From Patescibacteria group bacterium (GTDB taxonomy: Bacteria > Patescibacteriota > Minisyncoccia > Phycocordibacterales > UBA9973), in assembly GCA_038063535.1 (NCBI GenBank), contig JBBTUV010000001.1:21570-85569 (forward strand): a stretch of 64,000 bases of DNA, read 5' to 3'. The translations under genes and the position numbers were made by a program. Positions 11,717 to 43,952 of this stretch are shown in pieces. Position 1 is the stretch's first letter. Every line of letters begins with the position of its first letter. The notes under the pieces are model-generated. The model ran no database searches. It saw nothing but the letters and a program-made list of their open reading frames with translations, and was not told the origin of the DNA.

Positions 11717-12268
11717 TCATAAGTGCGTTTCCTTGAGCGTCTGGTTGATGAGCGCGAGTATCTCCCCTCTTCGCTCTGTCACGCCAGATACGAGCTCATT
11801 TATTTTACTCTCACCGATATATCCAAGGTGATGCAAAACTTTAAGGACAATTATTATTTCCGAATTCTGCATTTCCCCCCCACTCCCCACTTGCTCGAGC
11901 GCCGAAAATCCATCGAGGATTTCGAGGAAAAGCGGCTCGTTAGAGCCTTCCCCAGGAAGAAGACGTCGCAAGAGCCGAGCGATGTTTGAAACTATTTTAA
12001 AGACTTCAAGATTTCTCGAAAGATCTTCAAGTTTGCCGGTCGGCGCGGCGCTTCCGATCCGCCAAAAATCTCTGCCTTGCACTAGATCAATTTTTACGTA
12101 AGAGTAGTCCTGCAAAATGTAGCGCAGCTTCGAAGATATTTTCCGCACTCCCGACGCCCGCGCCGTCACCATGCCGAGCTCGCGGGTAAAAACGTAAAAA
12201 TATTTTCCATCCTCGCCGAAATTCCTGCTGCCCAAAATTATCCCTTCAGTATGATAAATGTGATGCAT
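11717..12268 (-). CDS. recO: RecO-like recombination mediator (short form, no zinc finger)
   Basis: N-terminal OB-fold pattern HTEGIILGSRNFGEDGKYFYVFTRELGMVTARASGVRKISSKL...LQ. Only 183 aa. Confidence 0.55.
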   Translation of the reverse strand: MHHIYHTEGIILGSRNFGEDGKYFYVFTRELGMVTARASGVRKISSKLRYILQDYSYVKIDLVQGRDFWRIGSAAPTGKLEDLSRNLEVFKIVSNIARLLRRLLPGEGSNEPLFLEILDGFSALEQVGSGGEMQNSEIIIVLKVLHHLGYIGESKINELVSGVTERRGEILALINQTLKETHL

Positions 12269-22883: not shown

Positions 22884-23405
22884 CTCAAGCTCTACGCCGG
22901 CTACGTCAAGAACGCAAACCTAATCAATGAAAAAATCGCGGAGTACAAAAAAGATGCGGAGGGAAATGCATATGCCCTGGGCGAACTCCAGCGGAGGTTC
23001 AGTTTTGAATATAACGGCATCAGGAATCACGAGTATTATTTCGATTCGCTCGCCGGCGGCGCTAAAAATCTGGATTCCGGATCTCCACTGCGAAAGGAAA
23101 TAGAAAAAGAGTTCGGTTCCTTCGAGGACTGGCTCAACATGTTCAAAGCCATTGCTCTCACTCGCGGCATCGGCTGGGCAGTACTGGCTTGGGACCACGA
23201 CGAGGAACAATTTGTGCACATATGGGTAGACGAGCAGCATATCGGTCAGTTAAATGGGGTTTGCTGGATACTGGGGCTTGATATGTGGGAGCACGCTTAT
23301 GTCTATGACTACCCGACAAGTGAGAAGAAAAAATACATAGAGGCGTTTTTCGATAACCTCAATTGGGAAGAGATAGAGAAGAACTTTCTGGAGCTGCAGG
23401 ACTAG
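22809..23405 (+). CDS. sodA: Fe/Mn superoxide dismutase
   Basis: N-terminal helical domain (HLKLYAGYV, NHEYYF). C-terminal WEHAYVYDY with conserved metal-ligand spacing. Confidence 0.9.
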   Translation: MKPYTQKTFNIPELKGISKKNIEEHLKLYAGYVKNANLINEKIAEYKKDAEGNAYALGELQRRFSFEYNGIRNHEYYFDSLAGGAKNLDSGSPLRKEIEKEFGSFEDWLNMFKAIALTRGIGWAVLAWDHDEEQFVHIWVDEQHIGQLNGVCWILGLDMWEHAYVYDYPTSEKKKYIEAFFDNLNWEEIEKNFLELQD

Positions 23406-24834: not shown

Positions 24835-25292
24835 GCTCTAAGCTTTACCGGCTCGTTGTCGGCAAAGCTCGTCGCGATTTCGTCTGCACGGTTGTTCCAT
24901 TTGTCTTCGTGATGGCCTTTCACGTAATCCCATTTGGGTTTGAATTTCCTGTCGAGTTCATAGAGCTCCTCCCAGAACTCACGATTCATTACCGGCTTCT
25001 TGTTGGCCCCTCGCCAATTATTCCTAAGCCAATTAGGAATCCATTCTGTTATCCCCAAGACGACATATTTAGCATCGGCTATTATTTTAATTTCGCCGGC
25101 GATTTTATTTTCTTTCATGTATTTAAGCGCCTCAATGGCCGCCCGGAGTTCCATCTGATTGTTGGTGGCATGCTCCACTCTGCCGCCGATCTCAAAAACT
25201 TTTCTGCCCGCGATAAAAACCGCCGCCCAGCCGGCCGGCCCAGGATTGCCTCTCGCCGATCCATCTGTATAGATTGTTATTTTATTCTTCAT
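24831..25292 (-). CDS. rnhA: ribonuclease HI
   Basis: IYTDGSARGNPGPAGWAAV, NNQMELRAAIEAL, C-terminal DKWNNRADEIA (DEDD catalytic residues). Confidence 0.85.
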   Translation of the reverse strand: MKNKITIYTDGSARGNPGPAGWAAVFIAGRKVFEIGGRVEHATNNQMELRAAIEALKYMKENKIAGEIKIIADAKYVVLGITEWIPNWLRNNWRGANKKPVMNREFWEELYELDRKFKPKWDYVKGHHEDKWNNRADEIATSFADNEPVKLRA

Positions 25293-26941
25293 ATGATATC
25301 CACCACCCTAAGGCGCAGTTCTTCCCGGCCGCGGTAGCGGGAGAGATCGAGGTTGGCAAGCAAGTTCACGTAAAATCCAACACCCACGGGACCTGTGAAA
25401 GAATCTCCGTGAGAGAAAAAGGAAACCGCTTTTGCTTTGTTTCCCAAAGAGTCAATAAAAGAAATTTCCAAGTGCTCGCCGCCGTTTTTGCCGAATTTTT
25501 TTATGTTTTCGACTTTCACTTTCTCGAAAAGAAAAACCGGTTTCGGGTTTCCGAGCCCGTATGGCGCAAGTTTCTGGATTTCATCCCAAGTTTTCATGGT
25601 CACGACCCCTAAATCCGATTTTATATCATAATTTATATTAGTATTTAAATTAGTATTTCTTCTGACTTTTGAAAAATTACTCGCGAGGGCCTCTTCGAGA
25701 AAATGAATTTTATCGGTATGCACGGAAAACCCCCCTGCAAGCTCGTGCCCACCGTACTCGATGAAATATTCCCGGGTTTCGGTCATAAGTTCCACTACCG
25801 ACACCGACCCGTCCGAGCGGCAGGAACCTCTGATAGAATCGCTCTCATCCTTGCCCCAGACAAAAACCGGCCGCGCGTATTCATCCGAGATTTTCCCGGC
25901 CACGAGGCCTAGCACTCCCACTCGCCACTTTGGATTACCAACGACTATTATCTCGCGCATCTCCCTCTTCTCGAAATTTTTCTTCACTTCCCGCATGATA
26001 CCCGCAACCATGGCCTTCCTTTCGTCGTTGATGCGCGAGAGATGCTCGGCGAGCACCCCAGCCCGTCCTTCATCAAGAGTAGTGAGAAGCTCATAGGCCC
26101 TGCGCGGATCATCCATGCGCGAAGCGGCGTTCAGGCGCGGGGTTATCGAGAAGGTCACGTCATCTTCGGAGAGATATTTCTGGTCGATGCCGAGATTGGC
26201 AAGAAGTTTCTGCAATCCCGGCCGTGGCGAGCGGCGCAGGACCTTGAGACCGAAGTACGCAAGAGCGCGATTTTCTCCGAGGAGCGGCACCATGTCAGCA
26301 AGAGTGGCAAGCCCAGCCATGTCGAGCATCCATTTTTCAGCGTCGTCTTTAATTTTGAAATATTCTCCGTACTTTTTGACGAAGGCCTGCGCAAACTTGA
26401 ACATGACCCCAGCCCCGGCGAGCATTTTCTCGGGGTACTCATCTGTCTTCGGATTCAAGATCGCGTAAGCCTTCGGTAGAACTTCTGGCGGGAGGTGATG
26501 GTCTGTGATAATAACATCCATCCCGTCAACTTCAGCCTGCGCGACTTCTGCAATGGCGGTAATCCCGAGATCGATTGTAATCAAAAGTTTTGCACCGGAT
26601 TCAGCGAATTGCTTGACTGCCTCGACATTGAGCCCATAGCCCTCGATATTCCGTTTCGGAATATAGACCTCGAAATTTTTGAAACTGACGAGACGAAAGA
26701 GATCCTCGAGGATCACCGCCCCGGGAATGCCGTCGCAATCATAGTCGGCGTAAATAATTATTTTTTCCTTGTTCTCAACCGCCTCGTACAGCCTGACGCA
26801 GGCCCGCTCCATGTCGCGCATAAGGTATGGGTCGTAGAGGTCCCTCCTGTAATCCGGCTTCAAAAATATTTCGGCTTCCGCCTCTGTCCTTATACCCCTT
26901 TTCTTAAGGAGAGTTCCTAGGAGTTCCCCGTACTTTTGCAT
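25289..26941 (-). CDS. recJ: single-stranded-DNA-specific exonuclease RecJ
   Basis: DHH family: IIYADYDCDGIPGAVIL, VIITDHHLPPE, DHHA1 region GGHELAGGFSV. Confidence 0.85.
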   Translation of the reverse strand: MQKYGELLGTLLKKRGIRTEAEAEIFLKPDYRRDLYDPYLMRDMERACVRLYEAVENKEKIIIYADYDCDGIPGAVILEDLFRLVSFKNFEVYIPKRNIEGYGLNVEAVKQFAESGAKLLITIDLGITAIAEVAQAEVDGMDVIITDHHLPPEVLPKAYAILNPKTDEYPEKMLAGAGVMFKFAQAFVKKYGEYFKIKDDAEKWMLDMAGLATLADMVPLLGENRALAYFGLKVLRRSPRPGLQKLLANLGIDQKYLSEDDVTFSITPRLNAASRMDDPRRAYELLTTLDEGRAGVLAEHLSRINDERKAMVAGIMREVKKNFEKREMREIIVVGNPKWRVGVLGLVAGKISDEYARPVFVWGKDESDSIRGSCRSDGSVSVVELMTETREYFIEYGGHELAGGFSVHTDKIHFLEEALASNFSKVRRNTNLNTNINYDIKSDLGVVTMKTWDEIQKLAPYGLGNPKPVFLFEKVKVENIKKFGKNGGEHLEISFIDSLGNKAKAVSFFSHGDSFTGPVGVGFYVNLLANLDLSRYRGREELRLRVVDII

Positions 26942-29231: not shown

Positions 29232-30548
29232 ATGCGACGAAACAGAGGCTTCACTCTGCTTGAGACGCTCGTCGGGAGCTTCGTTTTTCTCGTTGTCGCG
29301 CTGGCCGCCTATCGCGCTTTCGGGACGCTCATGGACGCGGTCGCCGCTTCCCAGTCGAAAGTCGCGGCCTCGGCGCTCGCGAACGAACAATTTGAGATAA
29401 TCCGTAATCTCCCCTATACTGACGTCGGCATCGTGGCGGGACTTCCGGCCGGGAAAGTACCAAGAGAGCAAGCGCTCGTGCGCGACGGTTATTCTTTCTC
29501 TGTTTTGACTACTATCCGCAGTTCCGACGACCCTTTCGATGGCACGATCGGAGGCAATCCGAGCGATACCTCCCCGGCGGACTACAAACTCGCGGATCTC
29601 GACATCACTTGCAACAATTGCAAGATCTTCACTCCGCTTAAGTTCACGACTCTGGTCGCTCCAAGAGCGCTTGAAACCGCAAGCTCAAATGGCGCGCTTT
29701 TCATCCAAGTTTATGATTCGGCGGGAGCGCCAGTACCCGATGCTTCCGTTCACATAGTAAACACCCAAACTGATCCGGACACGATTATCGACGAAGTCAC
29801 AGATAGCGGGGGCTGGTTGAAAATAGTTGACGCTCCGCCGGGAACGAACGCGTACAACATTTCCGCGACCAAGGCCGGGTACACCCTCGAGCAAACCTAC
29901 CCTTACGGAGGCGGAGCCGGACCCGACCCGATAAAGCCGGACTCGACCGTCGTCCTCCAGCAAGTCACGCAGATCGGATTTCAGATTGACCGGGAAAGTT
30001 CCCTCTCGGTTACCACTGTCGACGGAACCTGTGTGGCCCTCCCCTCCGTCGGATTCTCCTTGACCGGGACCAAGTTGATCGGTAATCCTTCGGTCCTAAA
30101 ATATCCGACCCAGAATTTCACCACCGACGCATCCGGGGCCTATTCGCTCTCGGATATGGAATGGGATACTTACGGCGTGCTTCTGACGAGCGGTACCTAC
30201 GACCTCGCCGGAACCTCGCTTCTGCCCAGCTTCGCATTAAATCCGAACGAAAATAAAGTTTTGCAGTTAGTGGCTGTCCCGCATGCAAGCTACGCGCTTC
30301 TGGTCACGGTAAAGGACTCGCAGAACGCTCCGATAAACGGCGCGACGGTGCACCTGGAGAAATCGGGATTCGATGAGACAAAAATCGCCGGGAGCGGTCC
30401 TTGCTCAACTCCAGGGCAGGTCTTCTGGAACGGACTTACAAGCGGCTCCTACACGCTTACTGTCTCCTACGCCGGCTACCAAGATTCCGTAAGCACGGTC
30501 GACATGTCCAGCGCTTGGCAAGAAAGGACGATAACTCTCAATCCCTAG
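29232..30548 (+). CDS. type IV pilin-like / pseudopilin protein with large C-terminal domain
   Basis: Prepilin class III signal MRRNRG|FTLLETLVGSFVFLVVALAA (G-1, F+1, E+5). About 400-aa beta-rich C-terminal region. Confidence 0.65.
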   Translation: MRRNRGFTLLETLVGSFVFLVVALAAYRAFGTLMDAVAASQSKVAASALANEQFEIIRNLPYTDVGIVAGLPAGKVPREQALVRDGYSFSVLTTIRSSDDPFDGTIGGNPSDTSPADYKLADLDITCNNCKIFTPLKFTTLVAPRALETASSNGALFIQVYDSAGAPVPDASVHIVNTQTDPDTIIDEVTDSGGWLKIVDAPPGTNAYNISATKAGYTLEQTYPYGGGAGPDPIKPDSTVVLQQVTQIGFQIDRESSLSVTTVDGTCVALPSVGFSLTGTKLIGNPSVLKYPTQNFTTDASGAYSLSDMEWDTYGVLLTSGTYDLAGTSLLPSFALNPNENKVLQLVAVPHASYALLVTVKDSQNAPINGATVHLEKSGFDETKIAGSGPCSTPGQVFWNGLTSGSYTLTVSYAGYQDSVSTVDMSSAWQERTITLNP

Positions 30549-30550
30549 CC

Positions 30551-31153
30551 ATGAAACTCCGCCATAAAAAAGGATTCGCTCTTATTGAAACCCTTTTTGC
30601 CGTTTCGATCTTTGTCCTCATCGTGATCGCGCTCGGGATGCTTGCAAGGAATATCTGGATTTACAGCTCCTACGTCTCGACCGGGCTTTCCGATTCTATA
30701 AACGGCAGGCGCGCACTCAAGCTCATGACCGCGGAGATCCGTACCGCTTCCACCGCCGATACTGGCGTCTACACGATCGCAGTCGCATCCGGAAATTCTT
30801 TCACTTTTTACTCCGATATCGACGGCGATGTGCTCAAGGAAAAAGTGAGATACTTTCTCGCCGGCGCGAACTTGCAAAAGGGAGTGACCAAGCCCACTGG
30901 CTCTCCGCTCTCTTACAATCCGGCAAATGAGGTTATCTCAACTCTGATCGGAAACGTGACAAGCGCGAACATTTTCAGCTATTACGACGAGAACTACGAC
31001 GGAACTACGGCGGCGCTTTCTTTCCCGGTTAACATCGCTCTTATCCGGCTCGTGAAGATCACTTTCACTACCGACAAAGACCCGAACCGTGAGCCCGCTC
31101 CCTCGACTTTCACCACTCAAGTTTCCATACGCAATCTTAAAGACAACCTATAA
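30551..31153 (+). CDS. type IV pilin-like protein (start at the internal Met of the ORF-track ORF)
   Basis: MKLRHKKG|FALIETLFAVSIFVLIVIALG prepilin cleavage/methylation motif. Starts 3 nt after the preceding pilin gene. Confidence 0.65.
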   Translation: MKLRHKKGFALIETLFAVSIFVLIVIALGMLARNIWIYSSYVSTGLSDSINGRRALKLMTAEIRTASTADTGVYTIAVASGNSFTFYSDIDGDVLKEKVRYFLAGANLQKGVTKPTGSPLSYNPANEVISTLIGNVTSANIFSYYDENYDGTTAALSFPVNIALIRLVKITFTTDKDPNREPAPSTFTTQVSIRNLKDNL

Positions 31154-32607
31154 TGAAATGCTCAATTTACAATTTTCGATTTTCAAAGCGGAATCGAGGG
31201 ATGATAATCGTGCAGACGCTCGTGTTTGCAAGCATAGTCGTTGTGATCATGGCGGCGCTGGCGAGCTATTCCGCGACCGCCATCCGCACGGGTAGAACCG
31301 CCTTCAACCGCGAGCAGGCGCTGCAGGCGGCAGAAGCCGGCATCGACTACTATCGATGGCACCTCGCGCACGCCCCGAGCGATTACCAAGACGGTACCGG
31401 TGGGGCCGGGCCGTACATTCACGACCTAAAGAATCGGAGCGGAACGACGGTGGCTGAATTTTCCTTGGATATCACCGCGCCGCCCGTCGGCTCGACTATC
31501 GTAAAGATAGAATCGACCGGTGCTTCTTCTGCCGACCCGAGTTACGTACGAAAAGTGGAGAGCTCCGTCGCCAAGCCTTCGATCGCTAAATATGCGGTCG
31601 CCGGTAACAACGCTTTCCGTTTCGGCACTGGCACGGAGGTTTTTGGACCGATCCACGTGAACGGCGGCATCCGCTTCGACGGGCTGGCACACAATTTGGT
31701 CACAAGCGGCACGACCAGCTACACCGATACTGACTATGACGCTTGCACCGGCGCAAACTCTTACGGTGTGCACACCTGTGTTTCCCCGGCCGACCCGACT
31801 TACCCCACCGCTCTGCCGGTGCGTCAGGATGTTTTCGAAGCCGGACGCCTGATCAGCCAGCCGACCATAGATTTCGGAGGATTCACTACCGACCTTGCGA
31901 CTCTAAAGAGCGACGCTATCGCAAACGGCTTTTACCGGGATGTCGCCGGATCGGGATACGTCGGTTATCATATGGTGCTAAAGACGAACGATACTTTTGA
32001 TCTCTATAAGATTAATTCCTGGGCGAGCTTGGGAAGCTGCTCAAGCTCTCCTTCCGGCACTCTGAGCTGGAGCGTGGGCGCACAAACGCTCGAGGGTAAT
32101 TTTCCCTTCCCTTCGAACGGAATAATCTTCATCGAAGACCATGTGGTAGTGGACGGACAGATCAATGGCGCCAGGCTTACCATTACAGCCGCGGACCTCC
32201 CGGTTCCTTCCAACCCGAACAATTATAAAAACATTCTGACCAATAATGACCTCTCTTACACCAATTATGACGGGTCGGATTCAATCGGATTGATCGCCCA
32301 AGGCGGAGTGATGGTGGGGCTCCAGAGTGAGAACGATCTTAAGATTGATGCGGCTCTGGTCGCTCAAAACGGAAGAGTGGGAAGATTTTACTATTACGGC
32401 TCGAGTTGCACCAACAAGACCCGCTCCATCATTTCCCTCTACGGCATGATCGCTTCCTATTCCCGATACGGCTTTGCCTACACCGACGGGACCGGCTACG
32501 TGACCCGCAGCATCACTTACGATGCGAACCTTCTCTATGCCCCGCCTCCTTCTTTCCCGCTCACTTCGAGCCAATACGAGATACTCTCCTGGCAAGAAGT
32601 GAAATAA
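31153..32607 (+). CDS. PilX-like minor pilin / pseudopilin (large)
   Basis: N-terminal hydrophobic segment RNRG|MIIVQTLVFASIVVVIMAALASY, with Gln instead of Glu at +5. This is third in the pilin gene run. Confidence 0.45.
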   Translation: MKCSIYNFRFSKRNRGMIIVQTLVFASIVVVIMAALASYSATAIRTGRTAFNREQALQAAEAGIDYYRWHLAHAPSDYQDGTGGAGPYIHDLKNRSGTTVAEFSLDITAPPVGSTIVKIESTGASSADPSYVRKVESSVAKPSIAKYAVAGNNAFRFGTGTEVFGPIHVNGGIRFDGLAHNLVTSGTTSYTDTDYDACTGANSYGVHTCVSPADPTYPTALPVRQDVFEAGRLISQPTIDFGGFTTDLATLKSDAIANGFYRDVAGSGYVGYHMVLKTNDTFDLYKINSWASLGSCSSSPSGTLSWSVGAQTLEGNFPFPSNGIIFIEDHVVVDGQINGARLTITAADLPVPSNPNNYKNILTNNDLSYTNYDGSDSIGLIAQGGVMVGLQSENDLKIDAALVAQNGRVGRFYYYGSSCTNKTRSIISLYGMIASYSRYGFAYTDGTGYVTRSITYDANLLYAPPPSFPLTSSQYEILSWQEVK

Positions 32608-33825
32608 CTATTGGATCTGGTTCAAGACCGAGTAGAGAGGCGAGATCATCGAAATCGCGAAGAACCCGACCGCGGCGCCGATCACTATCATAAGCAGAGG
32701 CTCGATGATAGTGGAGAGATTTTTCGTCCTATTTTCGATCTCCTCCTCGTAAAAGGCGGCGACTTGAAGTAGCATATCCGAGAGCTTGCCCGTTTCTTCC
32801 CCAACCTCGATCATCTCTGACATCATGATAGGGTAAAGATGGGTGTTTTCCTCAAAAGTCTTTGAGAATGACGACCCCTTCTCCACTGCCGTTTTCGCCT
32901 CTCGGAGCACTTTTTTGTAGTAAATGTTCTGAACTACGTCCTCAGTTATCTCAATTGCACGGGTAATCGGAACTCCAGCCAAAAGGAGCGAGGACATGGT
33001 ACGGGTGGTCCGGGCGGTGTTAAGCTCTTTTGCCAAGTTACCGATCACTGGGAGATGCACCGTAAGAAAGTCAATATATTTTCTGAGAAAGGGCGCTCGC
33101 AGGAGCGCTACCATGCCGAGCGATCCAAGAATAATGATAAGAAAGGTGATCACCAGGTGCTCGGAGAAAAAGTTCCCCATCCAGATGATCGCTTGGGTGG
33201 ACTTCGGAAGCGTCACCCCGAGCTCCTTGAAGGTGCTCGCAAGCGTGGGCACCACGAAAGCGAACATGAGTACCCCGATGATCACCATCGCGGAGAGTAT
33301 CACCCCGGGATAGACCAGTGCGCCGTGGATCTTTTTGTTAAGAGAGTGCGCTTTTTCAAGGTTGCCGCCGATATCAGTGAGTGCACCGGCTAGGTTCCCC
33401 GACTCTTCCCCGGCCCGCACCATCGAGACGAAGAGCGCAGAGTAGACTTTGGGAAATTTGGCAAGTGCAGTGGAAAAAGGCTCACCGGTGTTTATATCGT
33501 TCGCAAGCGACTTCAAAATCTTCTGAAGCGCGGCGTTTTTTGTCTGCTTCTCCAAGACCGCGATCGCCCGTGCGAGGGAGAGCCCCGCCCGAAGCATTCC
33601 GCTCAGATTCTTGCAGAAAAGAATGAGCTCCGCCTTACTGATATGTCCGAGGGCGCTTTTGAGAAGCGCCGCGAAGTCGAGGCTATGCGCCCCTTTCTCT
33701 TTGATCGATATGGGAGTCGAGCCCCTTGAACGCAGTTCTTTGGCAAGCGTAAATCGGTCGATCGATTCTAAGAGCCCTGTATAGACTTCTCCGGTTTTTG
33801 ATTGAGCTTTGTAAGCAAAAAGCAT
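32608..33825 (-). CDS. pilC: type IV pilus assembly platform protein PilC / GspF family
   Basis: Two GspF repeats, three TM segments, conserved C-terminal PLYSVLNQI. Confidence 0.85.
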   Translation of the reverse strand: MLFAYKAQSKTGEVYTGLLESIDRFTLAKELRSRGSTPISIKEKGAHSLDFAALLKSALGHISKAELILFCKNLSGMLRAGLSLARAIAVLEKQTKNAALQKILKSLANDINTGEPFSTALAKFPKVYSALFVSMVRAGEESGNLAGALTDIGGNLEKAHSLNKKIHGALVYPGVILSAMVIIGVLMFAFVVPTLASTFKELGVTLPKSTQAIIWMGNFFSEHLVITFLIIILGSLGMVALLRAPFLRKYIDFLTVHLPVIGNLAKELNTARTTRTMSSLLLAGVPITRAIEITEDVVQNIYYKKVLREAKTAVEKGSSFSKTFEENTHLYPIMMSEMIEVGEETGKLSDMLLQVAAFYEEEIENRTKNLSTIIEPLLMIVIGAAVGFFAISMISPLYSVLNQIQ

Positions 33826-33828
33826 ATC

Positions 33829-35562
<1,734 letters not shown>

Positions 35563-35584
35563 TACTTCTTATTATAACAAAAAA

Positions 35585-35602
35585 AATCCCAAGATAGGGA
35601 TT
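35585..35602 (-). terminator. intrinsic-terminator-like hairpin plus T-run only about 17 nt upstream of the pilB start codon (minus strand)
   Basis: AATCCC-tatctt-GGGATT followed by TTTTTTTT on the minus strand. It may terminate the upstream small ORF or act as a leader attenuator for pilBC. Confidence 0.45.
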
Positions 35603-35686
35603 AAAAAATCTGATATAAAATACAAATCCCCTTTTCCTGCACTGCATGGAAAAGGGGGCGTCTTTGATTCTTTTTTGAGACCTCTC

Positions 35687-35836
35687 CTATGGCCACAACT
35701 TCATGGTCCATAGGGCAATCTCGTCGGCAAACACATGCACCAGCGTAAAGCCGGTGCCCAACGCCAGGGCGCAGAGCCCTGTGAACTCTAGAGGTCTGTC
35801 TTCGTACAACCTTTCGACCTTTTCCCAAATTCTCAT
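35687..35836 (-). CDS. possible small membrane protein (49 aa)
   Basis: Good SD GGAGGT 6 nt upstream of ATG (MRIWEKVERLYEDRPLEFTGLCALALGTGFTLVHVF...). One hydrophobic helix. Bracketed by two terminator hairpins. Confidence 0.25.
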   Translation of the reverse strand: MRIWEKVERLYEDRPLEFTGLCALALGTGFTLVHVFADEIALWTMKLWP

Positions 35837-35934
35837 CGAGCCACCTCCAGTTGGGTTGCCTCCTACCATCTCCTTGCATTATATCACACTTGATATACAA
35901 AAGTCAATAGGCAAAAGCCTTTATTTTGCAACGA

Positions 35935-35958
35935 AAAAAGCGACTTATGTCGCTTTTT
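35935..35958 (-). terminator. Rho-independent terminator downstream of the SH3b-like secreted protein gene
   Basis: AAAAAGCGAC-ttat-GTCGCTTTTT. Perfect 10-bp stem flanked by A/T runs, about 20 nt after the stop. Confidence 0.6.
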
Positions 35959-35978
35959 TCTCTAAACGGCATTGCTAG

Positions 35979-37955
35979 CTATCTAGCGTACTCTGCCAAG
36001 ATTTTTGCTAATAATTCTTTTTGCCAGACAGCGGGGGTTTCGCTAGCAATATCAGAATCAGGAAGTTGTTGCACGTTGGGTGACCCATTTGCTTCTATGG
36101 ATTTAATCAGTGCCAAGGTATCAACTCGCCACCCATCGCTTACTATCAAAGTTTCGGGCGCCATCATATACAGCTTATACTGCGCGGTATTTCTAAGTTG
36201 TGAAGCGTCCCATAATATCGGCTGTTTATCCCATTGACCAGTCCCCAATGAACCGGGAGCCCTGCGAGCCGCCTCATTTACTTCTATATAAAAAGGAAGG
36301 TCACGCCAGTTTGTCGGAACTGGGTTTGATGCTGGTCCACTTCCCCAAGCACTCCACGTTAGGAAGAGCACACGCCAAAATTTACCAGTCGATGGCTGTA
36401 CGTACAGATTCCAGTATCGGACAGCAACAGTACCCGGAAAAGATGGGTCAACTGCTGTTTCCGCTCGGGTTCCCAAGAAACGCCACTCACTTGGGTCGCT
36501 TGGTAGATATTGAATATCCTTTTTTAAAAACGAGCCCAGTGGACCCCCTATAACAGCTGTTCCAGTATTGGCAAGCATGTATTCCATGGACGGAAGAGAA
36601 AGAGATCCATCGGGAGTTGTGTCAGTTATTTTTATCAAATAATTTTCCGCACTCCAGCCGTCCGGCGCGTTCACGTAATCCACGTTCCACCAAGTATATC
36701 CGCCTGTGGTAACTGGGGGCAGGGGCATGATAGTGCCCCGGCTTCCTGCATTTTGGACTCCGAGGATCGAGCCATTGGCCGCGCTTCGAGCGTTGAGGTT
36801 CACCATAGTTTGCATCATGTCTCCGGCTTGGAATTTAGCGGGGGCGGAAGGGGGTGGCGGGGGAATGGGGTCAGGTCCGCCGGTTAGCGGAGGGCTTGCA
36901 ACTCCCGCCGGAGAATTTATATCCGCTCCACCGATGCTTGATGCAGAAACCCAACCAACCAGTGTCCCGCCCGTGGGGGCAGTGAAGTTTACTTCGAACC
37001 ATGCGCCAGTCAGTTCTTGCCCGACCACCGTGCCGCGCACGCCTGCAGGGTATGTCGTAAGTGGCGTAGCGTTTGCCCCGGCATCACTTCGAACGGTAGT
37101 TGAAGTCTTTGTCTCAACGTAGTCCCCTACTCGGAATTGCCACGCCGTAGCGCCGGCCGGAGGACTATAGGGAGAATAAGGAGTACCTGTCGTGTTTAAG
37201 CTTGTTCCCGGGCAGCGCTGTCCCGTCATGCCGCTGTAAAGATCTCCCGGAGCGCAATTTCTTGGAGGGGCGGCCGGCGGTGGCGGAGGAGGGGCAGGTG
37301 GGGGCGGTGGGGGCAGTGCAGACGGAGTCCCCGAAGCGCATCCGTAGGTAACTCCGTTTGCTGCATCCTGTTGCGAAGGGCGCAGAAGTGATAATCTTGT
37401 CCAGTCATTCAAGCTTCCAATTATTGCAGTCCAGGTCGAAGGCCCCCATATTCCAGAAGCAAAACCCCCGAAACTAAGCGAGAAGGCTTCGCCCTTCGCC
37501 TCGCGATATTGCCTCGCAGTTGCAAGTAAAGTAGCTTCATTACCATTGATACGACTTAGCTCGTCCGCATAGAGAGGCCACTGCTGGAGAGACACTCCGG
37601 TCTGCACTCCGTTGACTGACGGTAGCCATCCATCGATTGGCTCGCTTTGAGTAATCTCTCTGGTCAGAAGTGGTGAGGGCAAATTCTGCCACCCTTCGTA
37701 AGAAAGCTGGCCGTTTGAGAAAGAGAAGTGGCGATAGCCGTTCAGTTGATGAACTGTCACGCCCGGGACTGATTGGGAAGTATATTTGGTTTGGTAGGCA
37801 AATTGCACCCCTCGATAAACTTTCACAGAGCCGTCAGGACAAAGCGAAACGGGGGCCGTCTGCGCATGCGCCGCCTGTCCCGAGAACAGAAGGGCGAGGG
37901 CTAAAATCCCAATTGTTAATTTAGTGTTCACTTTATAAACTTTATAACTTTCCAC
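35979..37955 (-). CDS. secreted protein with two SH3b-like domains separated by poly-proline linkers
   Basis: Signal peptide MESYKVYKVNTKLTIGILALALLFSGQAAHA. PPPPPPAPPPPPPAAPP and PIPPPPPSAP linkers. Two segments fit the bacterial SH3 pattern (FRVGDYVETKTSTTVRSDAGANATPLTTYPAGVRGTVVG...WFEV and FQAGDMMQTMVNLNARSAANGSILGVQNAGSRGTIMP...WWNVDY). Confidence 0.55.
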   Translation of the reverse strand: MESYKVYKVNTKLTIGILALALLFSGQAAHAQTAPVSLCPDGSVKVYRGVQFAYQTKYTSQSVPGVTVHQLNGYRHFSFSNGQLSYEGWQNLPSPLLTREITQSEPIDGWLPSVNGVQTGVSLQQWPLYADELSRINGNEATLLATARQYREAKGEAFSLSFGGFASGIWGPSTWTAIIGSLNDWTRLSLLRPSQQDAANGVTYGCASGTPSALPPPPPPAPPPPPPAAPPRNCAPGDLYSGMTGQRCPGTSLNTTGTPYSPYSPPAGATAWQFRVGDYVETKTSTTVRSDAGANATPLTTYPAGVRGTVVGQELTGAWFEVNFTAPTGGTLVGWVSASSIGGADINSPAGVASPPLTGGPDPIPPPPPSAPAKFQAGDMMQTMVNLNARSAANGSILGVQNAGSRGTIMPLPPVTTGGYTWWNVDYVNAPDGWSAENYLIKITDTTPDGSLSLPSMEYMLANTGTAVIGGPLGSFLKKDIQYLPSDPSEWRFLGTRAETAVDPSFPGTVAVRYWNLYVQPSTGKFWRVLFLTWSAWGSGPASNPVPTNWRDLPFYIEVNEAARRAPGSLGTGQWDKQPILWDASQLRNTAQYKLYMMAPETLIVSDGWRVDTLALIKSIEANGSPNVQQLPDSDIASETPAVWQKELLAKILAEYAR

Positions 37956-37967
37956 TTTGAACTTCCC

Positions 37968-40900
37968 CTAGTCTTCGATAAATCCGGGCACCCGGTAGAC
38001 CGGCAGAGTCGAAACTCCGATGGAAGTAGTGCAATTTGCATTGCCTGTTGCGCCAAGCGAGTCAGTGACGACGACGGAGAGCGACTTTTGTCCGGAGGTT
38101 GTGTAAGTCTTATAGAACGGGTTCCCTGTTCCCCCTGAAACATCCGTGCCGTTCCAGACATACGATGGATAGACACCACTCCCGCCCGAAGCGCTCGCCG
38201 TCCATGTCACCTGCTGATTGATGAGCGCCGAAGCGATGCCCGTAGAACAGGAGACAGAGAGCCCCGCAAGATTGGTCTCGTCATTGTCGCTTCCGTTCGC
38301 ACAACCCGGGTCGGCAAGGTCGACAAGCGTGTCCTCTGGGTCGGTGTTGTCAATACCGTCGGAACATTGCGGCGGGTTTGCTTCATCGGGATCCGATATG
38401 CTTGAACAGCTTGGGTCACTCGGGTAATCGGTATTGCCGTCGCCGTCGTTATCGGAGCCGTCGGAACACTGAGGGTTAGGGCTTTCAGTTGGGTCGCTTG
38501 CGTTCGTGCAGCCTGGGTCATTCGGGTAATCGGTCCAGGCGTCGGCGTCGTTGTTGGAGACATCAGAGCACTCGGGCGGCGGGGCGACAGCGGAAACCGT
38601 CACATTCGTCCAGGGAGAAGAGCAGTTGTTGCCTTCATTCGATTCGGCGATCAGGCCAGCGGCAGGCGTCATATCCATGTCGAGATCAGCGCACAGACGG
38701 ACGGAGTAGGTTCCAGCCGAAGTAAAGTTGTGGGAGGAGGAAGTCGCGCCCGCGCTTGTGGCTCCGCCAAGAGCCAACATATTGTTCTGGCTTATCGCCG
38801 TAAATACCGGGCTTCCGCCGTTTGCCGAGTTCGAGAGCTGGAAGAAGTTTAGGAATGAAGCTCCGGTCCCTGAGCAGCCGCCGTTCGTGACCGTTCCGGT
38901 GAACTGTTGGCCGACCCCGACCGTGGCGGTTGTCGGAGAGACACCTCCCAGGACTGTGAGATCAATTCCCGGAGTGCACCCAGCAGCGCCGGTGGCAAAT
39001 GTCGTATTACTCGTGTAGCCCGTACCGGTTGTGTTGGTAGCGTAGCCGCGGTAGTTGTAGGTAGTGCTAGCGGAAAGTCCTGAAACACCTGCGGTGAATG
39101 CGCTCGGCACGGTTTGGGACAGGGCGGCAGTCACGCATGTGCCGCCGTTAAGCCCCCCGAGTCCGGGGTTAGCCAATGTGCCATAACAAACTCCGCGGGC
39201 GGAAATCAAAGCTGGAACGCCAAGAGAAGTAACGGTAGCCCCGAGAGTGGCGGAACTGGAGGTAATAGCTGAAGAAGTCGGAGTGGTGACGGTGGGAATG
39301 ACATTGGTCGCGCAGATTGTTCCATTCCAGCCAGTGCCCGAAGTGCAGGAAGCGGTAATAGTGAGACCACCTCCACTGGGAGAAGTAGGATACAGTGATT
39401 TGGTGTTGTTGTTGAGGAAGAATGTTCTGGAGCTGTAAGGAATGATGACACCCGCTTTGGTGCCCGAGTCTACGGTCCCGGTGGTTACCAGAGGAGCAAT
39501 AATGAAATTGGGAGAGGCAGCTCCAGTGTCGTTGGTGTTGCTGGTGACATTAGATCCAAGCACAACTTCAGGATTAGTTACCGTCCAAGAAAGAGTTGTG
39601 GTACAACTGCTTGCGTTAAGAAGGATGATGCAGTTGGGACCGGAGAGGGTGCCGGACATGACGAGGGCATTCGACACCGTCACTTGCATATCATCAGTAC
39701 CCGTTGCCCCATTGTTGTCAGTTGCCGTTAGACGGAAAATATATGAACCCGCTGTCGTCATGTTACTAAACGACGGAGTCAGAGTTCCACCATTGGTGAT
39801 GGTTGGGATCGGTCCGGGTCCAGAGATGAAAGACCAGACGGTGGTAGAAATCGTACCGGGTGCGGTGTCGGTGGCGGAAGTGCTGGTGGGAGCGCTGGTG
39901 GAAGTAGGAAGAGTGATAGGTTTGTCTGGGCCGGCGTTGGCAACAGGCGGGATGTTGGCACAGAGCGCTCCGCTCCAGGCAGTGCCGGCGGTGCAGGTCG
40001 CAACGGCGGTATCGCCGGAGAGAAATTGCGAGTTGTTGTAGAGCTCAAAAAGCCGAGTGCCGTTTGGACTCCCGCCGAAGACGGGAGCAGTGGTCGAGCC
40101 GGAATTTCCAGTTGCTACTAGAAAGTTGGGAGACGAAGCACCACTGTTATTCTTATTGCTGGTAACCGACGAAGTCGCCACTGGATTAGTCGTGCTCCAG
40201 GAGAGGCTCGAGGTGCAGCTTGAGGCACCGGAGGTAATGGTGCAGTCGGAAGCGGAGAGCGTGCCGGACATGACAGGCGCCGGGTTCACCGTAACCGCCA
40301 CCCAGGAAGCGGAGCAGTTGTTGCCTTCGTTGGATTCGCCGATGGTGCCGTCGGTCATGGACCCGTTGTTGTCGGCGCAAACCCGGACATACCAAGTGCC
40401 GGATGACGGAAATGTATATGAGGAGGATGTGCCAGCTGATCCCGACGCTGCAAGCGGACCGATACTTGCGGAAGTCTGACCGGCATAAACGGTGCTGTGA
40501 TCAGCATCATTGTCGAATTGAAATGCGTTGGTGAAAGAAGAGCCGGTTGAGGCATTGCCATTATTGGTGATAGTGGAGCTGAAGGTTGTGGAAGAGCCCG
40601 CGGTTGCAGAGGTCGGCGTCGGCGCGCCCGCGACAAGGTCCGGCGCTGGGCAGGCAACAGTTGTGAATGTTCCATCAGAAGAATAGCCTATGAGCCCATC
40701 TGAATTAATAGCGTAGCCGCGGTATCGGTAAGTGGTGCCGCAAGACATCCCCGTTCGAACGTGTGAAAAAGCGCTGACTGCAGTTCCACCTTCAGCCAAC
40801 TGATTGCCAGTCGGTGATGGCGAAGTCCCCCATACAGTTCCGCGCGCGGTAAGGGCACAGCCACCATTTGAGGTTACGGTCGCTCCAAGAGTTGCACCTG

Positions 40901-41846
40901 TTTGGGTAATGGAAGTAGCAGTGGGACTGGAAAGAGTCGGGGCAGTACATGATAGTAAATAATTAAGCGGCATGTCGTAATTTCCTCCAGCCGAAGCGGT
41001 AACTGAAGAAACGGGGCTGCCAGGGGGGCAAGCATATCCGAGCGGAGCAGAGTCGCAATATAAATTGTAAGTCCCGGGAGATAGATTCGAATTTGTGGTT
41101 AGAGTATTAAAAGTTCCGGATGGCCCAATTAAGCGCCAGGTTCCGCCGGAAGGATTGGGGATAACATTGATGGTGGCTTCAGTCGAAGCATAAGTAATCG
41201 CAAAGGTTAGCGTCCCACCTGGGCCGACGGAAGCAGTCGGACCGGGGCTGATTGACTGGACAGAGTAACTTGGGGGCGGTGTGACACTAATAGTGTAATT
41301 TGTGCTGGGTGAGCGGGGCTTTACGTTTGTATTAGAAGCTCCCGTGTAGTTTCCAGGAGTAATTGTCCAGCTTCCACCACTAACGGGACTTTGAGTAACA
41401 TTGATTGTTGCTTTCGGTCTTACATCAATACTAGTCCAGGCGCCAAGATAATAGCAGTTCCCATTGCAATTGCTTATCGCCCAGGTGGTGTTGGTTTGGG
41501 TGCCATTGGTTAAACCCAAGAGATTCAAGTTCCCAAACTCCGGTATTGGACTGACAAACCCCGGCGGACAAGGATATTGAGGGGTGGATGGAGTTCCCGT
41601 TTGATTGGTGCGACAGAGCCATTCGTTTGTATTTGATCCTACGAGCTCAAAGTTGCCAGTAGTCCCAGTGGTGATAAGTGGCCATGGGCTTGTCTGAGGC
41701 GCTCCTCCACCGAGTACTCCGGTCGTGCACTGGGTTCCCATATCATCGAGAACACAAACAGTTAAATCTGCCGCGCTAGCGTTGTTAGAGAAAGCAAAAA
41801 ACAAAAAGGCTAAGAAAAGAGAGAGTAATAATAATTTTACTTTCAT
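37968..41846 (-). CDS. giant secreted surface/adhesin-like protein (1292 aa) with tandem Cys/Asp-rich C-terminal repeats
   Basis: Signal peptide MKVKLLLLSLFLAFLFFAFSNNASA. Long S/T/G/N-rich beta-domain arrays. Three ~33-aa repeats C-S-D-x-x-D-N-D-x-D-x-x-T-D-Y-P-x-D-P-x-C near the C-terminus. Confidence 0.6.
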   Translation of the reverse strand: MKVKLLLLSLFLAFLFFAFSNNASAADLTVCVLDDMGTQCTTGVLGGGAPQTSPWPLITTGTTGNFELVGSNTNEWLCRTNQTGTPSTPQYPCPPGFVSPIPEFGNLNLLGLTNGTQTNTTWAISNCNGNCYYLGAWTSIDVRPKATINVTQSPVSGGSWTITPGNYTGASNTNVKPRSPSTNYTISVTPPPSYSVQSISPGPTASVGPGGTLTFAITYASTEATINVIPNPSGGTWRLIGPSGTFNTLTTNSNLSPGTYNLYCDSAPLGYACPPGSPVSSVTASAGGNYDMPLNYLLSCTAPTLSSPTATSITQTGATLGATVTSNGGCALTARGTVWGTSPSPTGNQLAEGGTAVSAFSHVRTGMSCGTTYRYRGYAINSDGLIGYSSDGTFTTVACPAPDLVAGAPTPTSATAGSSTTFSSTITNNGNASTGSSFTNAFQFDNDADHSTVYAGQTSASIGPLAASGSAGTSSSYTFPSSGTWYVRVCADNNGSMTDGTIGESNEGNNCSASWVAVTVNPAPVMSGTLSASDCTITSGASSCTSSLSWSTTNPVATSSVTSNKNNSGASSPNFLVATGNSGSTTAPVFGGSPNGTRLFELYNNSQFLSGDTAVATCTAGTAWSGALCANIPPVANAGPDKPITLPTSTSAPTSTSATDTAPGTISTTVWSFISGPGPIPTITNGGTLTPSFSNMTTAGSYIFRLTATDNNGATGTDDMQVTVSNALVMSGTLSGPNCIILLNASSCTTTLSWTVTNPEVVLGSNVTSNTNDTGAASPNFIIAPLVTTGTVDSGTKAGVIIPYSSRTFFLNNNTKSLYPTSPSGGGLTITASCTSGTGWNGTICATNVIPTVTTPTSSAITSSSATLGATVTSLGVPALISARGVCYGTLANPGLGGLNGGTCVTAALSQTVPSAFTAGVSGLSASTTYNYRGYATNTTGTGYTSNTTFATGAAGCTPGIDLTVLGGVSPTTATVGVGQQFTGTVTNGGCSGTGASFLNFFQLSNSANGGSPVFTAISQNNMLALGGATSAGATSSSHNFTSAGTYSVRLCADLDMDMTPAAGLIAESNEGNNCSSPWTNVTVSAVAPPPECSDVSNNDADAWTDYPNDPGCTNASDPTESPNPQCSDGSDNDGDGNTDYPSDPSCSSISDPDEANPPQCSDGIDNTDPEDTLVDLADPGCANGSDNDETNLAGLSVSCSTGIASALINQQVTWTASASGGSGVYPSYVWNGTDVSGGTGNPFYKTYTTSGQKSLSVVVTDSLGATGNANCTTSIGVSTLPVYRVPGFIED
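38277..38582 (-). repeat. three tandem ~100-nt coding repeats (Cys-flanked Asp-rich, putative Ca-binding modules) inside the giant protein gene
   Basis: The nucleotide periodicity is visible, e.g. GGGTCACTCGGGTAATCGGTATTGCCGTCGCCGTCGTT versus GGGTCATTCGGGTAATCGGTCCAGGCGTCGGCGTCGTT. Protein repeats are PECSDVSNNDADAWTDYPNDPGC / PQCSDGSDNDGDGNTDYPSDPSC / PQCSDGIDNTDPEDTLVDLADPGC. Confidence 0.7.
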
Positions 41847-41955
41847 GTAAATAATTATAGCACAGAATAATCACGTAATTAATGCAAGCGGAAGTGTGGA
41901 AAAGAAGAATCCCCGCCTGGTATGACGGGGTTCTTGGACCGACCTTGTCGGGCCA

Positions 41956-43449
41956 CTACTTCAGCCGCGGAAAGTGCTCATGCACGATTCGCGGGATAAG
42001 GTTCTTTGGAAGTTCGCGCCGCGGCGGAGACTGAATAGCCGCCAGCGAGAGCGAAGCGAAGGGGGCTCCCGGCGCAGAGAGCGACCCCTGCAACCCGTCT
42101 GCTCCCACCCAATAGAACGCGTCCCAGGGCTCATCGCGCTCTTCGCGCTCGCCGTTATACACCCACGCCCGGCCAATATCGCTGTTGTACTCCCGCCGTA
42201 GTGCCAAGAGGTCTTCGGCAGAGAGAACATAAGCGATATCCTGCTTTTGTATAGGGGTCGGGCTGGTGACAGGTGGACAACCGGCAGTCCGCATGTTGCT
42301 AAGCCACATGCAGGTATGACCTACGGCCGGGATGGCATGGGAGAGCTCGTGATGAGCCCCCTGTGGACCGTATTTCCTGAGGTACGATGAATCCATCGTA
42401 ATCGAGCCCGTCCACCAATCCCTCACCAGACCGCCGAACGACGCCGCGAGGACATTGTCCTTGATGAAGACGAGTATCCCGCTGTCTGCGGCCTCGCTCT
42501 TGCTTGCGAGGACTACCCGTTCCTGGCAATACGCCCGATTCATCGAATCGAGCACCTCTGCCTGGAACCGGGCCAGGAACCCTGCCGGCGGGTCCTCGTT
42601 GAATCCGACCTTCGCCGGGAATTGTAACCAACCGCCATCCATGTAGAGCCACCCTCGTCCATCTGGGTGCATGACTCTATGGTAGAAGGAGAAGTTAGTC
42701 GGCTGTTCCGGAGTTGGTAATGGAACGGTGTAGGCTTTCCGGTAGTCGATCGGGACCGATACCGCCGGCCCCGACGTTGCGCAGACCGGAGTCGTCCGGA
42801 TTCTCGCGATCATCGGAATTGCCGATGTCCGCCAGTATTCCGGACCAGTGAGTCCGCACATCCACTTGAGATCTGCATCCCCACGGAAACACACGGGAAC
42901 GTTCGCCATCCCGACGTAGCGCGAATTGAGATTGTTGCGCCCGTCGGGACCGGTAAGTGCAGAGTCTCTGGGCCCATCCTTCGGACCCATCACTGCCCAG
43001 ACTCTTGGAAAGTACTTCCTTCCCAGGGAGTCGCGGGCCGCGACTTGCCTCTGGTCCATCCGGAGTGTGACGGAAACTTCGCTGCACTTTTGGACGGGAA
43101 CTGCCCCGTCGGACTCCGATCTTGCGCACCATTCCTGAGACGCAAGAGGCGGGATCATCCCATCCGCATTGCACGGATACGAAATCCCGGAGAGAGTGCA
43201 GGTAAAGGTGACGGGCTTCCCGAGCGAACTCGTCGCGCTGACCGAGATCGTAAGGTGGGCCTTGGGGAAATCCGGCAAACCGGACTGTGGGACAGTCGCA
43301 GGCGCCGTTGCCGAGAACGCTGTGATAACGTTCACCGGTGGTGGGGGCGGGGGTGGGGGCGGTTCGACCGGGGTCGGGCCGCAAGCGATTGCAAATGCGG
43401 CCATCAGGCCGCAGATGCGCGGCGAGATAGGACGCATTGTAACCTCCAA
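41956..43449 (-). CDS. signal-peptide protein with an HExxH (zinc-protease-like) motif and a poly-Pro linker
   Basis: Signal MRPISPRICGLMAAFAIAC followed by PPPPPPPPP. HHELSHAIPAVGH (HExxH...H) at aa 366-378. GC-rich relative to surrounding genes. Confidence 0.45.
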   Translation of the reverse strand: MEVTMRPISPRICGLMAAFAIACGPTPVEPPPPPPPPPVNVITAFSATAPATVPQSGLPDFPKAHLTISVSATSSLGKPVTFTCTLSGISYPCNADGMIPPLASQEWCARSESDGAVPVQKCSEVSVTLRMDQRQVAARDSLGRKYFPRVWAVMGPKDGPRDSALTGPDGRNNLNSRYVGMANVPVCFRGDADLKWMCGLTGPEYWRTSAIPMIARIRTTPVCATSGPAVSVPIDYRKAYTVPLPTPEQPTNFSFYHRVMHPDGRGWLYMDGGWLQFPAKVGFNEDPPAGFLARFQAEVLDSMNRAYCQERVVLASKSEAADSGILVFIKDNVLAASFGGLVRDWWTGSITMDSSYLRKYGPQGAHHELSHAIPAVGHTCMWLSNMRTAGCPPVTSPTPIQKQDIAYVLSAEDLLALRREYNSDIGRAWVYNGEREERDEPWDAFYWVGADGLQGSLSAPGAPFASLSLAAIQSPPRRELPKNLIPRIVHEHFPRLK

Positions 43450-43676: not shown

Positions 43677-43952
43677 ATGATTTCAAGTAAAGGAAAATTT
43701 TACTACATATATGTCCTTCTATCTCACGCGGATAAGAAGTTCTATGTAGGATATGCAAATAACTTGAAATCACGATTTGAGCAGCACGTGAAAGGCTCAG
43801 TCCTTTCTACGAAAAATCGAAGACCGTTAGAATTAATTTACTCTGAGGCCTGCCTTGATAAACGCGACGCAATGCATCGAGAAAGATACCTGAAGACATT
43901 TCACGGTAAACAATTTCTGAGAAATAGGCTCAAATCGTATTTAACAGGGTGA
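43677..43952 (+). CDS. GIY-YIG domain nuclease-family protein (UPF0213/YhbQ-like)
   Basis: FYYIYVLLSHADKKFYVGYANNLKSRFEQH...R..E. This is the GIY-(10)-YVG, R, E signature. Confidence 0.8.
   Translation: MISSKGKFYYIYVLLSHADKKFYVGYANNLKSRFEQHVKGSVLSTKNRRPLELIYSEACLDKRDAMHRERYLKTFHGKQFLRNRLKSYLTG

Follow-up and report, generated by a model that had tools for sequence, protein, structure and literature searches.

A conserved type IV pilus core beside a variable slot for exported envelope proteins in a Patescibacteria genome

We analyzed a pilus locus and its neighbors in an ultra-small, groundwater-type member of the Patescibacteria represented by a metagenome-assembled genome, using 64,000 nucleotides (nt) of contig JBBTUV010000001.1 (assembly GCA_038063535.1, positions 21,570 to 85,569; this whole stretch is called the window below). 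Genes for three minor pilins (mp1 to mp3), the platform protein PilC, and the assembly ATPase PilB are followed here by genes for three large proteins, p658, p1292, and mz497 (together, the trio), which occupy the gap between pilB and nusA (the slot). All eight open reading frames (ORFs) were found again at the coordinates and on the strands given in an earlier note made by reading the letters of the window. That note took the whole stretch for one surface or host interaction locus. We instead favor, at a probability of about 70%, a reading in which two things stand side by side, a conserved type IV pilus core and a variable cargo slot, with the trio not being part of the pilus machine. The surface part of the earlier proposal fits the data, as the trio consists of exported envelope proteins whose adhesin-like, peptidoglycan-binding-like, and protease domains are compatible with it. 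The idea of a single functional unit did not survive: between the trio and pilB lie a strong terminator, a distinct promoter, and another hairpin, and the slot is variable among relatives.

To place the locus among its relatives, we compared 80 metagenomic loci anchored on PilB (61 to 79% identity) and mapped the window proteins onto them by tblastn. The conserved backbone runs comEC-rnhA-recJ-pgk-tpiA, the three minor pilins (in either orientation), pilC-pilB, the gap, and nusA-hppA-tig. Both pilB and nusA are present in 21 of these loci, where the gap measured 136, 176, 228, 318, 371, 457, 465, 510, 568, 635, 1236, 1403, 1421, 2970, 3559, 3590, 4696, 5006, 6140, 6260, and 9466 bp; that of the window is 8.4 kb. 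The gaps of 136 to 635 bp (10 of the 21 loci) hold no ORF of at least 120 amino acids (aa), save for one of exactly 120 aa in locus L029. Where the gap is filled, it contains between one and five ORFs of this length or longer, nearly all on the strand of pilB, and their Pfam content varies by locus (CARDB, Flg_new, beta-helix, TSP_1, Gly-rich, or none). A signal-like hydrophobic segment was present at the N terminus of every slot ORF inspected (26/26), in three or four of them only past an internal start.

The trio genes do not co-occur with pilBC in the manner of conserved accessory genes, p1292-type modules being a partial exception. The metzincin catalytic domain of mz497 was found in 0 of the 80 PilB-anchored loci when all six-frame ORFs were searched with a profile; three loci gave weak matches to the N-terminal region. 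A repeat of the SH3b type present in p658 occurs in one of the 80, the closest relative (L004), where the corresponding position is taken by a protein with three repeats. About 10 close relatives have modules of the p1292 type (FN3-like A, CARDB, and Ig B), in reshuffled order, immediately upstream of pilB, a loose and partial positional association that is confined to this gene type. Metzincin genes elsewhere are found divergent from nusA, as in the window, in the distantly related L084 (where genes for a transmembrane protein and for a Cys/Ser/Thr-rich repeat protein of >703 aa come next), just downstream of nusA in L001, and in unrelated contexts with no pilus genes in L003, L085, L086, and L087. 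In a more distant clade, pilB adjoins the gene of a zinc-ribbon protein that lacks a signal peptide and looks cytoplasmic.

We read the trio as variable cargo beside the pilus genes because it has promoters and terminators of its own, recognized at the level of consensus and fold. The order on the minus strand is mz497, p1292-p658, a small ORF, and pilB-pilC, so that the trio forms two transcription units; p1292 and p658 lie 12 nt apart and are therefore probably cotranscribed. The earlier note had called terminator hairpins by eye, and they hold up in computation. After p658, at 35933 to 35960 (minus strand), stands the intrinsic terminator A6GCGAC-AUAA-GUCGCU6, with a 12-bp stem and a folding energy of -19.2 kcal/mol (z = -4.05; 0/200 shuffles as good). 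After mz497, at 41911 to 41930 (minus strand), a G+C-rich, terminator-like hairpin (CCCCGUC...GGCGGGG) carries a U-rich tail (z = -3.6). Another hairpin with a U-run precedes pilB at 35571 to 35602 (minus strand; z = -3.6).

Between the p658 terminator and pilB, a strong sigma-70-like promoter (35687 to 35907, minus strand) reads TTGACT-18-TATAAT with an upstream TG (TGaTATAAT), an 11/12 match to consensus. It drives a 49-aa ORF (35687 to 35836, minus strand) that is preceded by a Shine-Dalgarno sequence, encodes one hydrophobic helix, and is of uncertain gene status; the region could represent a small membrane peptide or a noncoding leader. In L004 (positions 1030 to 1390), the promoter is 87% identical and the terminator is kept; the enclosed 45-aa ORF with a single transmembrane segment is unrelated in sequence. 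A comparable small ORF is absent from most of the 64 loci checked, and with a plausible equivalent in L004 only, we rejected it as a conserved pilus component. Extended -10 boxes were also read by eye 8 nt before the pilB ATG (TGtTATAAT, 35571 to 35579) and 7 nt before the p1292 ATG (TGcTATAAT, 41862 to 41854); the consensus promoter scan did not list them. Start codons this close to the -10 boxes, with no Shine-Dalgarno sequence, suggest that the pilB and p1292 mRNAs are leaderless. A p1292 -35 box read by eye (TTGCAT) was rejected for its spacer of 22 nt, and the extended -10 box remains.

Several further genes in and near the slot were recorded along the way. Two secreted families recur in the slot, one with a P(I/L)NVG..Q.K.G.L motif after the signal peptide and one with the motif SG(W/F)AWS.NIGWISFNS, and neither matches the trio (members: L022 6725-9716, L026 8076-9932, L074 6174-7316, L075 9060-9863, L051 1536-4076; L011 2584-3567, L017 3836-5110, L022 5469-6713). 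In the clade with 67% PilB identity (L033, L036, L039, L041, L042, L049, and L050), a block upstream of pilB encodes ribonucleotide reductase (RNR), an energy-coupling factor (ECF) S-component, DUF4430, thioredoxin, and CutA1, along with one or two paralogues of ~570 aa that have an N-terminal CxxC..CxxC pattern and no signal peptide. As candidates for further pilus genes, these upstream genes were rejected on their Pfam matches (RNR, thioredoxin, CutA1, and others). A 91-aa ORF between the slot and nusA (43677 to 43952, plus strand) begins with a GIY-YIG-like motif by our reading of the sequence; tblastn placed small ORFs resembling it close to pilB or tpiA in L012, L014, and L068, and L086 has an annotated GIY-YIG gene.

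Judged by its sequences, the pilus block is a type IV pilus module, as the earlier note had proposed; PilB, PilC, and the minor pilins bear this out. PilB (577 aa; 33829 to 35562, minus strand) matches Pfam T2SSE over residues 173 to 573 (E = 6.4e-121), including the P-loop, and has an N-terminal MshEN domain (E = 1.7e-11), as expected of a PilB/GspE assembly ATPase; its score against TIGR02538 (513 bits) is below the equivalog cutoff of 676, which places it at the family level only. PilC (405 aa; 32608 to 33825, minus strand) contains two copies of Pfam T2SSF (E = 1.3e-58) and has the makeup of a PilC/GspF platform protein, being spanned over its full length by the NCBIfam GspF/PilC models with scores below the equivalog cutoffs.

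The minor-pilin genes form a tightly packed operon on the plus strand, convergent with pilC-pilB. The first (mp1, 438 aa; 29232 to 30548) has the class III signal MRRNRG↓FTLLE (the arrow marks the cleavage site), a Pfam N_methyl match (E = 4.5e-7), two transthyretin-like CarboxypepD_reg domains (E = 2.8e-18), and syntenic homologues in 17 loci (30 to 67% identity). For mp2 (200 aa; 30551 to 31153), which starts at ATG 30551 rather than with the longer TTG ORF, a motif scan found the class III signal MKLRHKKGFALIE (KG↓FALIE); N_methyl and ComGE-like matches are weak, and syntenic homologues are present. Both signals, RG↓FTLLE and KG↓FALIE, have the canonical Gly at -1 and Glu at +5. The third gene (mp3, 484 aa; 31153 to 32607) had likewise been called prepilin-like, and here the label needs correction: its signal, RG↓MIIVQ, has Gln at +5. 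We class mp3 as GspK/PilX-like, not as a standard prepilin, because 15 syntenic homologues carry the same AEAGIDYYRWHL motif and nearly all of them also lack Glu5. It has a hydrophobic N-terminal helix, a weak NCBIfam match to the GspK N terminus (E = 0.007), and a large C-terminal domain without a recognized fold; searches of Pfam and the PDB gave no match to mp3.

In Saccharibacteria, the largest PilX-type minor pilins of the described type IV pili (TM7x T4P-1 and T4P-2; TM7i) carry extra C-terminal domains and are thought to be tip adhesins (PMC11623550, PMC9894109). Like the Nanosynbacter lyticus TM7x and TM7i pili, the pilus described here belongs to a member of the Patescibacteria and combines PilB and PilC with several minor pilins, and mp1 (438 aa) and mp3 (484 aa) fit the large-tip pattern. 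These two of the three minor pilins, with their large extra domains, are candidate tip proteins. Unlike the Saccharibacteria pili, this one comes from another class of Patescibacteria (homologues are labeled Parcubacteria) and is known here from its genes alone, and no major pilin, PilT, PilD, or PilM was found within the 64-kb window.

Turning to the trio, all three proteins have export signals, as had been claimed: two are of the Sec type and one is of the lipoprotein type by our reading of sequence and hydropathy. The lipoprotein is mz497 (41956 to 43449, minus strand), a predicted metzincin-like zinc protease. By rule it has a bacterial lipobox, MRPISPRICGLMAAFAIA↓C23 (FAIA↓C23), whose Cys and surroundings are kept in the two closest homologues (P0002 and P0003), followed by a Pro9 tether, two beta-sandwich domains (residues ~42 to 280), and a catalytic domain (~285 to 440). 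The true start is most likely ATG 43437, giving 493 aa, because the upstream region is conserved in homologues and a GGAGG Shine-Dalgarno sequence precedes it. The NCBI gene model is a 400-aa protein that starts at M98 and drops the lipobox, the Pro tether, and the greater part of the first Ig-like domain (43158 to 43449). A 215-aa slot lipoprotein in L038 (5584 to 6231; ...VSC↓GKSS, a Pro-rich tether, and an Ig-like domain) resembles the N-terminal part of mz497 without the protease domain (profile E = 2e-5).

The HExxH motif pointed out earlier in this protein proved to be the invariant core of a family. A word-indexed search with mz497 returned two relatives only, and a GTDB genome scan with a narrower metzincin alignment found a single locus. 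A HMMER profile run against 1.84 billion cluster representatives returned 89 relatives (31 below 1e-10), mostly full-length at ~450 aa. Relatives of one window protein are labeled Parcubacteria, as is most of the metzincin family. The predicted catalytic residues are H367-E368-xx-H371...H378 and M386; E368, H371, and H378 are invariant in an alignment of 44 sequences, with the consensus HELxHxLGFGHTCxWxSxM...DVAY...LERKYNTR..HQGER. The metzincin signature HExxHxxGxxH is thus the family consensus (HELxHxLGFGH), as in snapalysin (MEROPS M7), karilysin and the matrix metalloproteinases (MMP; M10), and the astacins (M12A). Most members also have a conserved Cys and then the Met of an S-x-M motif (M386) 8 residues past the third His, much like the C-x3-M of snapalysin; by its spacing in the sequence, M386 is a putative Met-turn residue. 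An AlphaFold2 (AF2) model of mz497 is confident (predicted local distance difference test [pLDDT], 89.2; predicted template modeling score [pTM], 0.84), and its catalytic domain has the five-stranded sheet, active-site helix, and C-terminal helix of the metzincin fold.

None of the curated Pfam and NCBIfam models matches mz497; among the 44 aligned relatives, 5 weakly match Peptidase_M10 and 5 match Reprolysin_5. Unlike the small bacterial metzincins, mz497 is lipoprotein-anchored through its Pro9 tether, and two N-terminal beta-sandwich domains replace the classical propeptide. The subclade to which it belongs also differs from them by a one-residue insertion in the zinc motif (HExxHxxxGxxH), with the third His one residue later. 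On alignment and model, the mz497 family is an undescribed family of membrane-tethered metzincins, and mz497 itself would be an active protease.

The central protein of the trio, p1292 (1292 aa; 37968 to 41846, minus strand), is a secreted chain of about a dozen beta-sandwich modules behind a Sec-type signal peptide (residues 1 to 25: MKVK, an L/F-rich h-region, and ASA↓AD). Two Ig-like modules (~145 to 296) are followed by FN3-like A, CARDB, Ig B, PKD, Ig B, FN3-like A, and CARDB; the C-terminal part consists of three acidic Cys repeats (~1090 to 1190) and a terminal PKD-like module. The earlier remark that no family signature beyond the named motifs could be recognized in the large proteins is now superseded. 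The two CARDB domains (E = 6.6e-13; 49.2 bits against a cutoff of 22.7) and a K319L-like PKD domain (E = 2.6e-14; 53.4 bits against 27; PDB PKD match, E = 3e-9) score above the Pfam cutoffs, and together with the signal peptide they make p1292 a modular surface protein of the CARDB/PKD kind. Internal duplications (44 to 48% identity) link residues 300 to 520 with 850 to 1085 and residues 520 to 660 with 725 to 867. Like CARDB/PKD/Big-type adhesins (SiiE, Bap-like), p1292 combines a signal peptide with a long, internally duplicated, Thr/Ser-rich chain of Ig-like modules, and its acidic Cys repeats suggest Ca2+ binding; these three double-disulfide repeats score below the NCBIfam cutoff. Unlike SiiE and Bap-like adhesins, it has no C-terminal transmembrane segment or type I secretion signal, and module order is reshuffled between close relatives. 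Its C terminus (...STLPVYRVPGFIED) lacks the LPXTG motif, hydrophobic stretch, and basic tail of a sortase anchor. Its modules point to a possible role in adhesion.

The last of the three, p658 (658 aa; 35979 to 37955, minus strand), has a Sec-type signal peptide (residues 1 to 31: a K-rich n-region, LTIGILALALLF, and AHA↓QT), an N-domain (32 to ~200), a poly-Pro linker (213 to 231), a first SH3b-like domain (~273 to 342), a Pro linker, a second SH3b-like domain (~373 to 443), and a C-domain (445 to 658). The poly-Pro linkers described in the earlier note are real, and its two SH3b-like domains stand at the superfamily level only. Against Pfam SH3_3 (PF08239; gathering cutoff, 27 bits), only the first copy matches, at 20.3 bits, and the best isolated repeat reaches 24.4 bits; 6 of 11 related repeats match, each below the cutoff. 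A profile built from the 11 repeats matches solved SH3b domains (2kyb, E = 1.2e-5 over profile positions 10 to 70; 2kt8, 9.7e-5; 2kq8, 1.4e-3; autolytic lysozyme 4krt, 4.5e-3), and by this profile evidence the p658 repeats are SH3b domains of a divergent subtype. Like the cell-wall-targeting domains among these, they are ~65 to 70 residues long, match from end to end, and stand in tandem with Pro-rich linkers between them. Unlike known SH3b domains, they carry the signature WWN(V/I)DY..DGW(S/A)xENYL, and p658 differs from SH3b wall hydrolases in having no recognizable hydrolase domain. An AF2 model from a four-sequence alignment (mean pLDDT, 33) is too poor to confirm the fold. The N-domain has a single known homologue (P0005, 46% identity), the C-domain has none among 5.8 billion proteins, and phmmer with both domains found nothing among all six-frame ORFs of the compared loci. 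The SH3b domains probably dock to peptidoglycan, that of the cell itself or of a partner cell.

In our preferred reading, then, a conserved pilus core adjoins a slot that is filled here by two independent transcription units encoding Sec-exported envelope proteins. The first would supply a lipoprotein metzincin, predicted to be catalytically competent and held on the external face of the membrane by its poly-proline tether. The second, a bicistron, would supply an adhesin-like beta-sandwich chain of ~1270 residues and then a two-SH3b protein that docks to peptidoglycan. The trio most likely serves as a surface toolkit, evolving fast and particular to its lineage, with which the cell contacts substrates or other cells. 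A surface role, or one in partner contact, is the most economical reading of the trio domains, and it fits what is reported of Saccharibacteria pili (PMC9894109, PMC11623550). The trio may also cooperate with the pilus, and judging from its domains it is plausible that it attaches to or degrades a host.

Streamlined free-living bacteria have hypervariable genomic islands that encode surface structures. The slot resembles them in its fixed position between conserved genes, in contents that differ among close relatives, and in its enrichment for envelope proteins. Unlike such islands, it is small (0 to 9.5 kb) and holds adhesin and protease genes instead of glycosyltransferase clusters; islands are moreover defined by variability within populations, and the slot was compared among related loci. 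A literature search found no prior description of a slot for secreted proteins beside pilus genes.

Several points weigh against this interpretation. Many of the compared loci end at contig edges, and the export signals were read directly from sequence with a hydropathy rule rather than a trained predictor. The recurrence of p1292-type genes beside pilB in the closest clade and the finding that almost every slot gene shares the strand of pilB both leave room for a real functional linkage. Within the trio, mz497 itself reads HELSHAIPAVGH in place of the family HExxHxxGxxH, with both the insertion and a replacement of the turn Gly; p1292 may be released instead of displayed, as it has no recognizable cell surface anchor; and no fold is known for either the N- or the C-domain of p658.

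The linkage just mentioned is central to a first alternative, an integrated host attachment locus in which first contact falls to the pilus, p1292 and p658 then bind the host wall, the metzincin opens or remodels the surface, and adjacency to pilB is under selection. The envelope location and domain types of the trio (adhesin, SH3b, and protease) fit this scheme, as do the near-constant co-orientation of slot genes with pilB and the placement of p1292-type genes (about 10 close relatives) and of the SH3b-repeat gene (L004) directly upstream of it. There is also precedent in the Saccharibacteria, where type IV pili mediate host binding and extra close-range adhesins have been proposed (PMC9894109, PMC11623550). 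We nevertheless consider it unlikely. About half of the loci with both flanks have an empty slot; no related pilB locus encodes the metzincin or the N- and C-domains of p658, and the SH3b repeat appears only in L004. The units are set apart by promoters and terminators of their own, pilus genes are missing from the surroundings of metzincin homologues in other loci, and the pilB neighbor of another clade looks cytoplasmic.

We are just as doubtful of a second alternative, in which the pilus mainly serves DNA uptake (competence) and the slot encodes envelope proteins of a housekeeping kind, unrelated to it, for wall maintenance, a surface layer, or extracellular protein digestion that feeds an auxotroph. 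Synteny of the pilus block with comEC and recJ is conserved and equally allows a DNA uptake role for the pilus; recA, recO, and a ComM-like ATPase are in the same window. However, with pgk and tpiA also placed between the pilins and comEC, the synteny may be mere inherited gene order. Secreted metzincins of the snapalysin kind are nutritional proteases, and SH3b domains are typical of cell wall hydrolases and wall-associated proteins, both of which suit the housekeeping part; conservation would then be expected, yet the trio genes are nearly unique to this genome.

A bolder extension of the slot reading would make the pilB-nusA position a dedicated, lineage-wide cassette site in Parcubacteria-type genomes, where the exchange and reshuffling of genes for adhesins, wall-binding proteins, and proteases sets the specificity for a partner (host), with the tethered metzincin processing the adjoining adhesin or cutting surface proteins of the partner. 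We regard it as speculative and would not expect it to hold; if true, pilus contact and slot cargo would jointly define the partners to which a cell can attach.

That the trio arrived recently as an island of mobile or phage origin, such as the receptor-binding proteins of a prophage remnant, is very improbable: the patchy distribution and very few homologues of the trio, the slightly raised G+C content over p1292 (0.57 versus about 0.50), and the adjoining small GIY-YIG ORF would suit it, but PHROGs gave no match, no tRNA or flanking direct or inverted repeats were found, no integrase lies within 17 kb (the sole one, XerC-like, is at 60.7 kb), Thr/Ser/Gly/Pro-rich composition accounts for the G+C content and skew, and the metzincin gene divergent from nusA in distant L084 suggests long residence there. 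Phage origin was accordingly rejected, as was a repeat-flanked mobile element, since around the slot the repeat search returned nothing beyond poly-Pro codon runs and internal domain repeats.

The remainder of the 64-kb window carries housekeeping genes (aminoacyl-tRNA synthetases, recA, recO, recJ, comEC, nusA, H+-PPase, trigger factor, ClpP, RNase Y, and PNPase), and tRNA and Rfam scans of it gave no match. Genes for RecA, RecO, ComEC, RNase H, RecJ, and a ComM/Mg-chelatase-like ATPase share these 64 kb with the pilus genes (1199 to 2224, 11717 to 12268, 23359 to 26941, and 54174 to 55721). An IleRS-like class I aminoacyl-tRNA synthetase (1281 aa; 13638 to 17483, minus strand) is an unusual fusion, with tRNA-synt_1 and Anticodon_1 domains, a His_Phos_1 domain inserted at residues 480 to 641, and a C-terminal HD domain. 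Outside the locus, at 9785 to 11704 (minus strand), a 639-aa protein with a DUF11 repeat domain is possibly another surface protein.

Patescibacteria make up a large, mostly uncultured share of bacterial diversity, and their cultured members live attached to other microbes. To our knowledge, how partners are recognized and held is largely unknown beyond a few oral Saccharibacteria. The type IV pilus, the metzincin, the SH3b domains, and the Ig-module adhesin are known kinds of components; the undescribed mz497 lipoprotein family and the variable pilB-nusA slot are what stands out. Current concepts remain as they were, with annotation refined and candidates for experiments supplied. The locus defines an uncharacterized family of membrane-tethered metzincins with a confident model and testable residues (E368, H367, H371, H378, and M386). 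The divergent SH3b subtype may report which cell wall is bound, and the pilB-nusA position offers a practical place to seek determinants of specificity in metagenomes.

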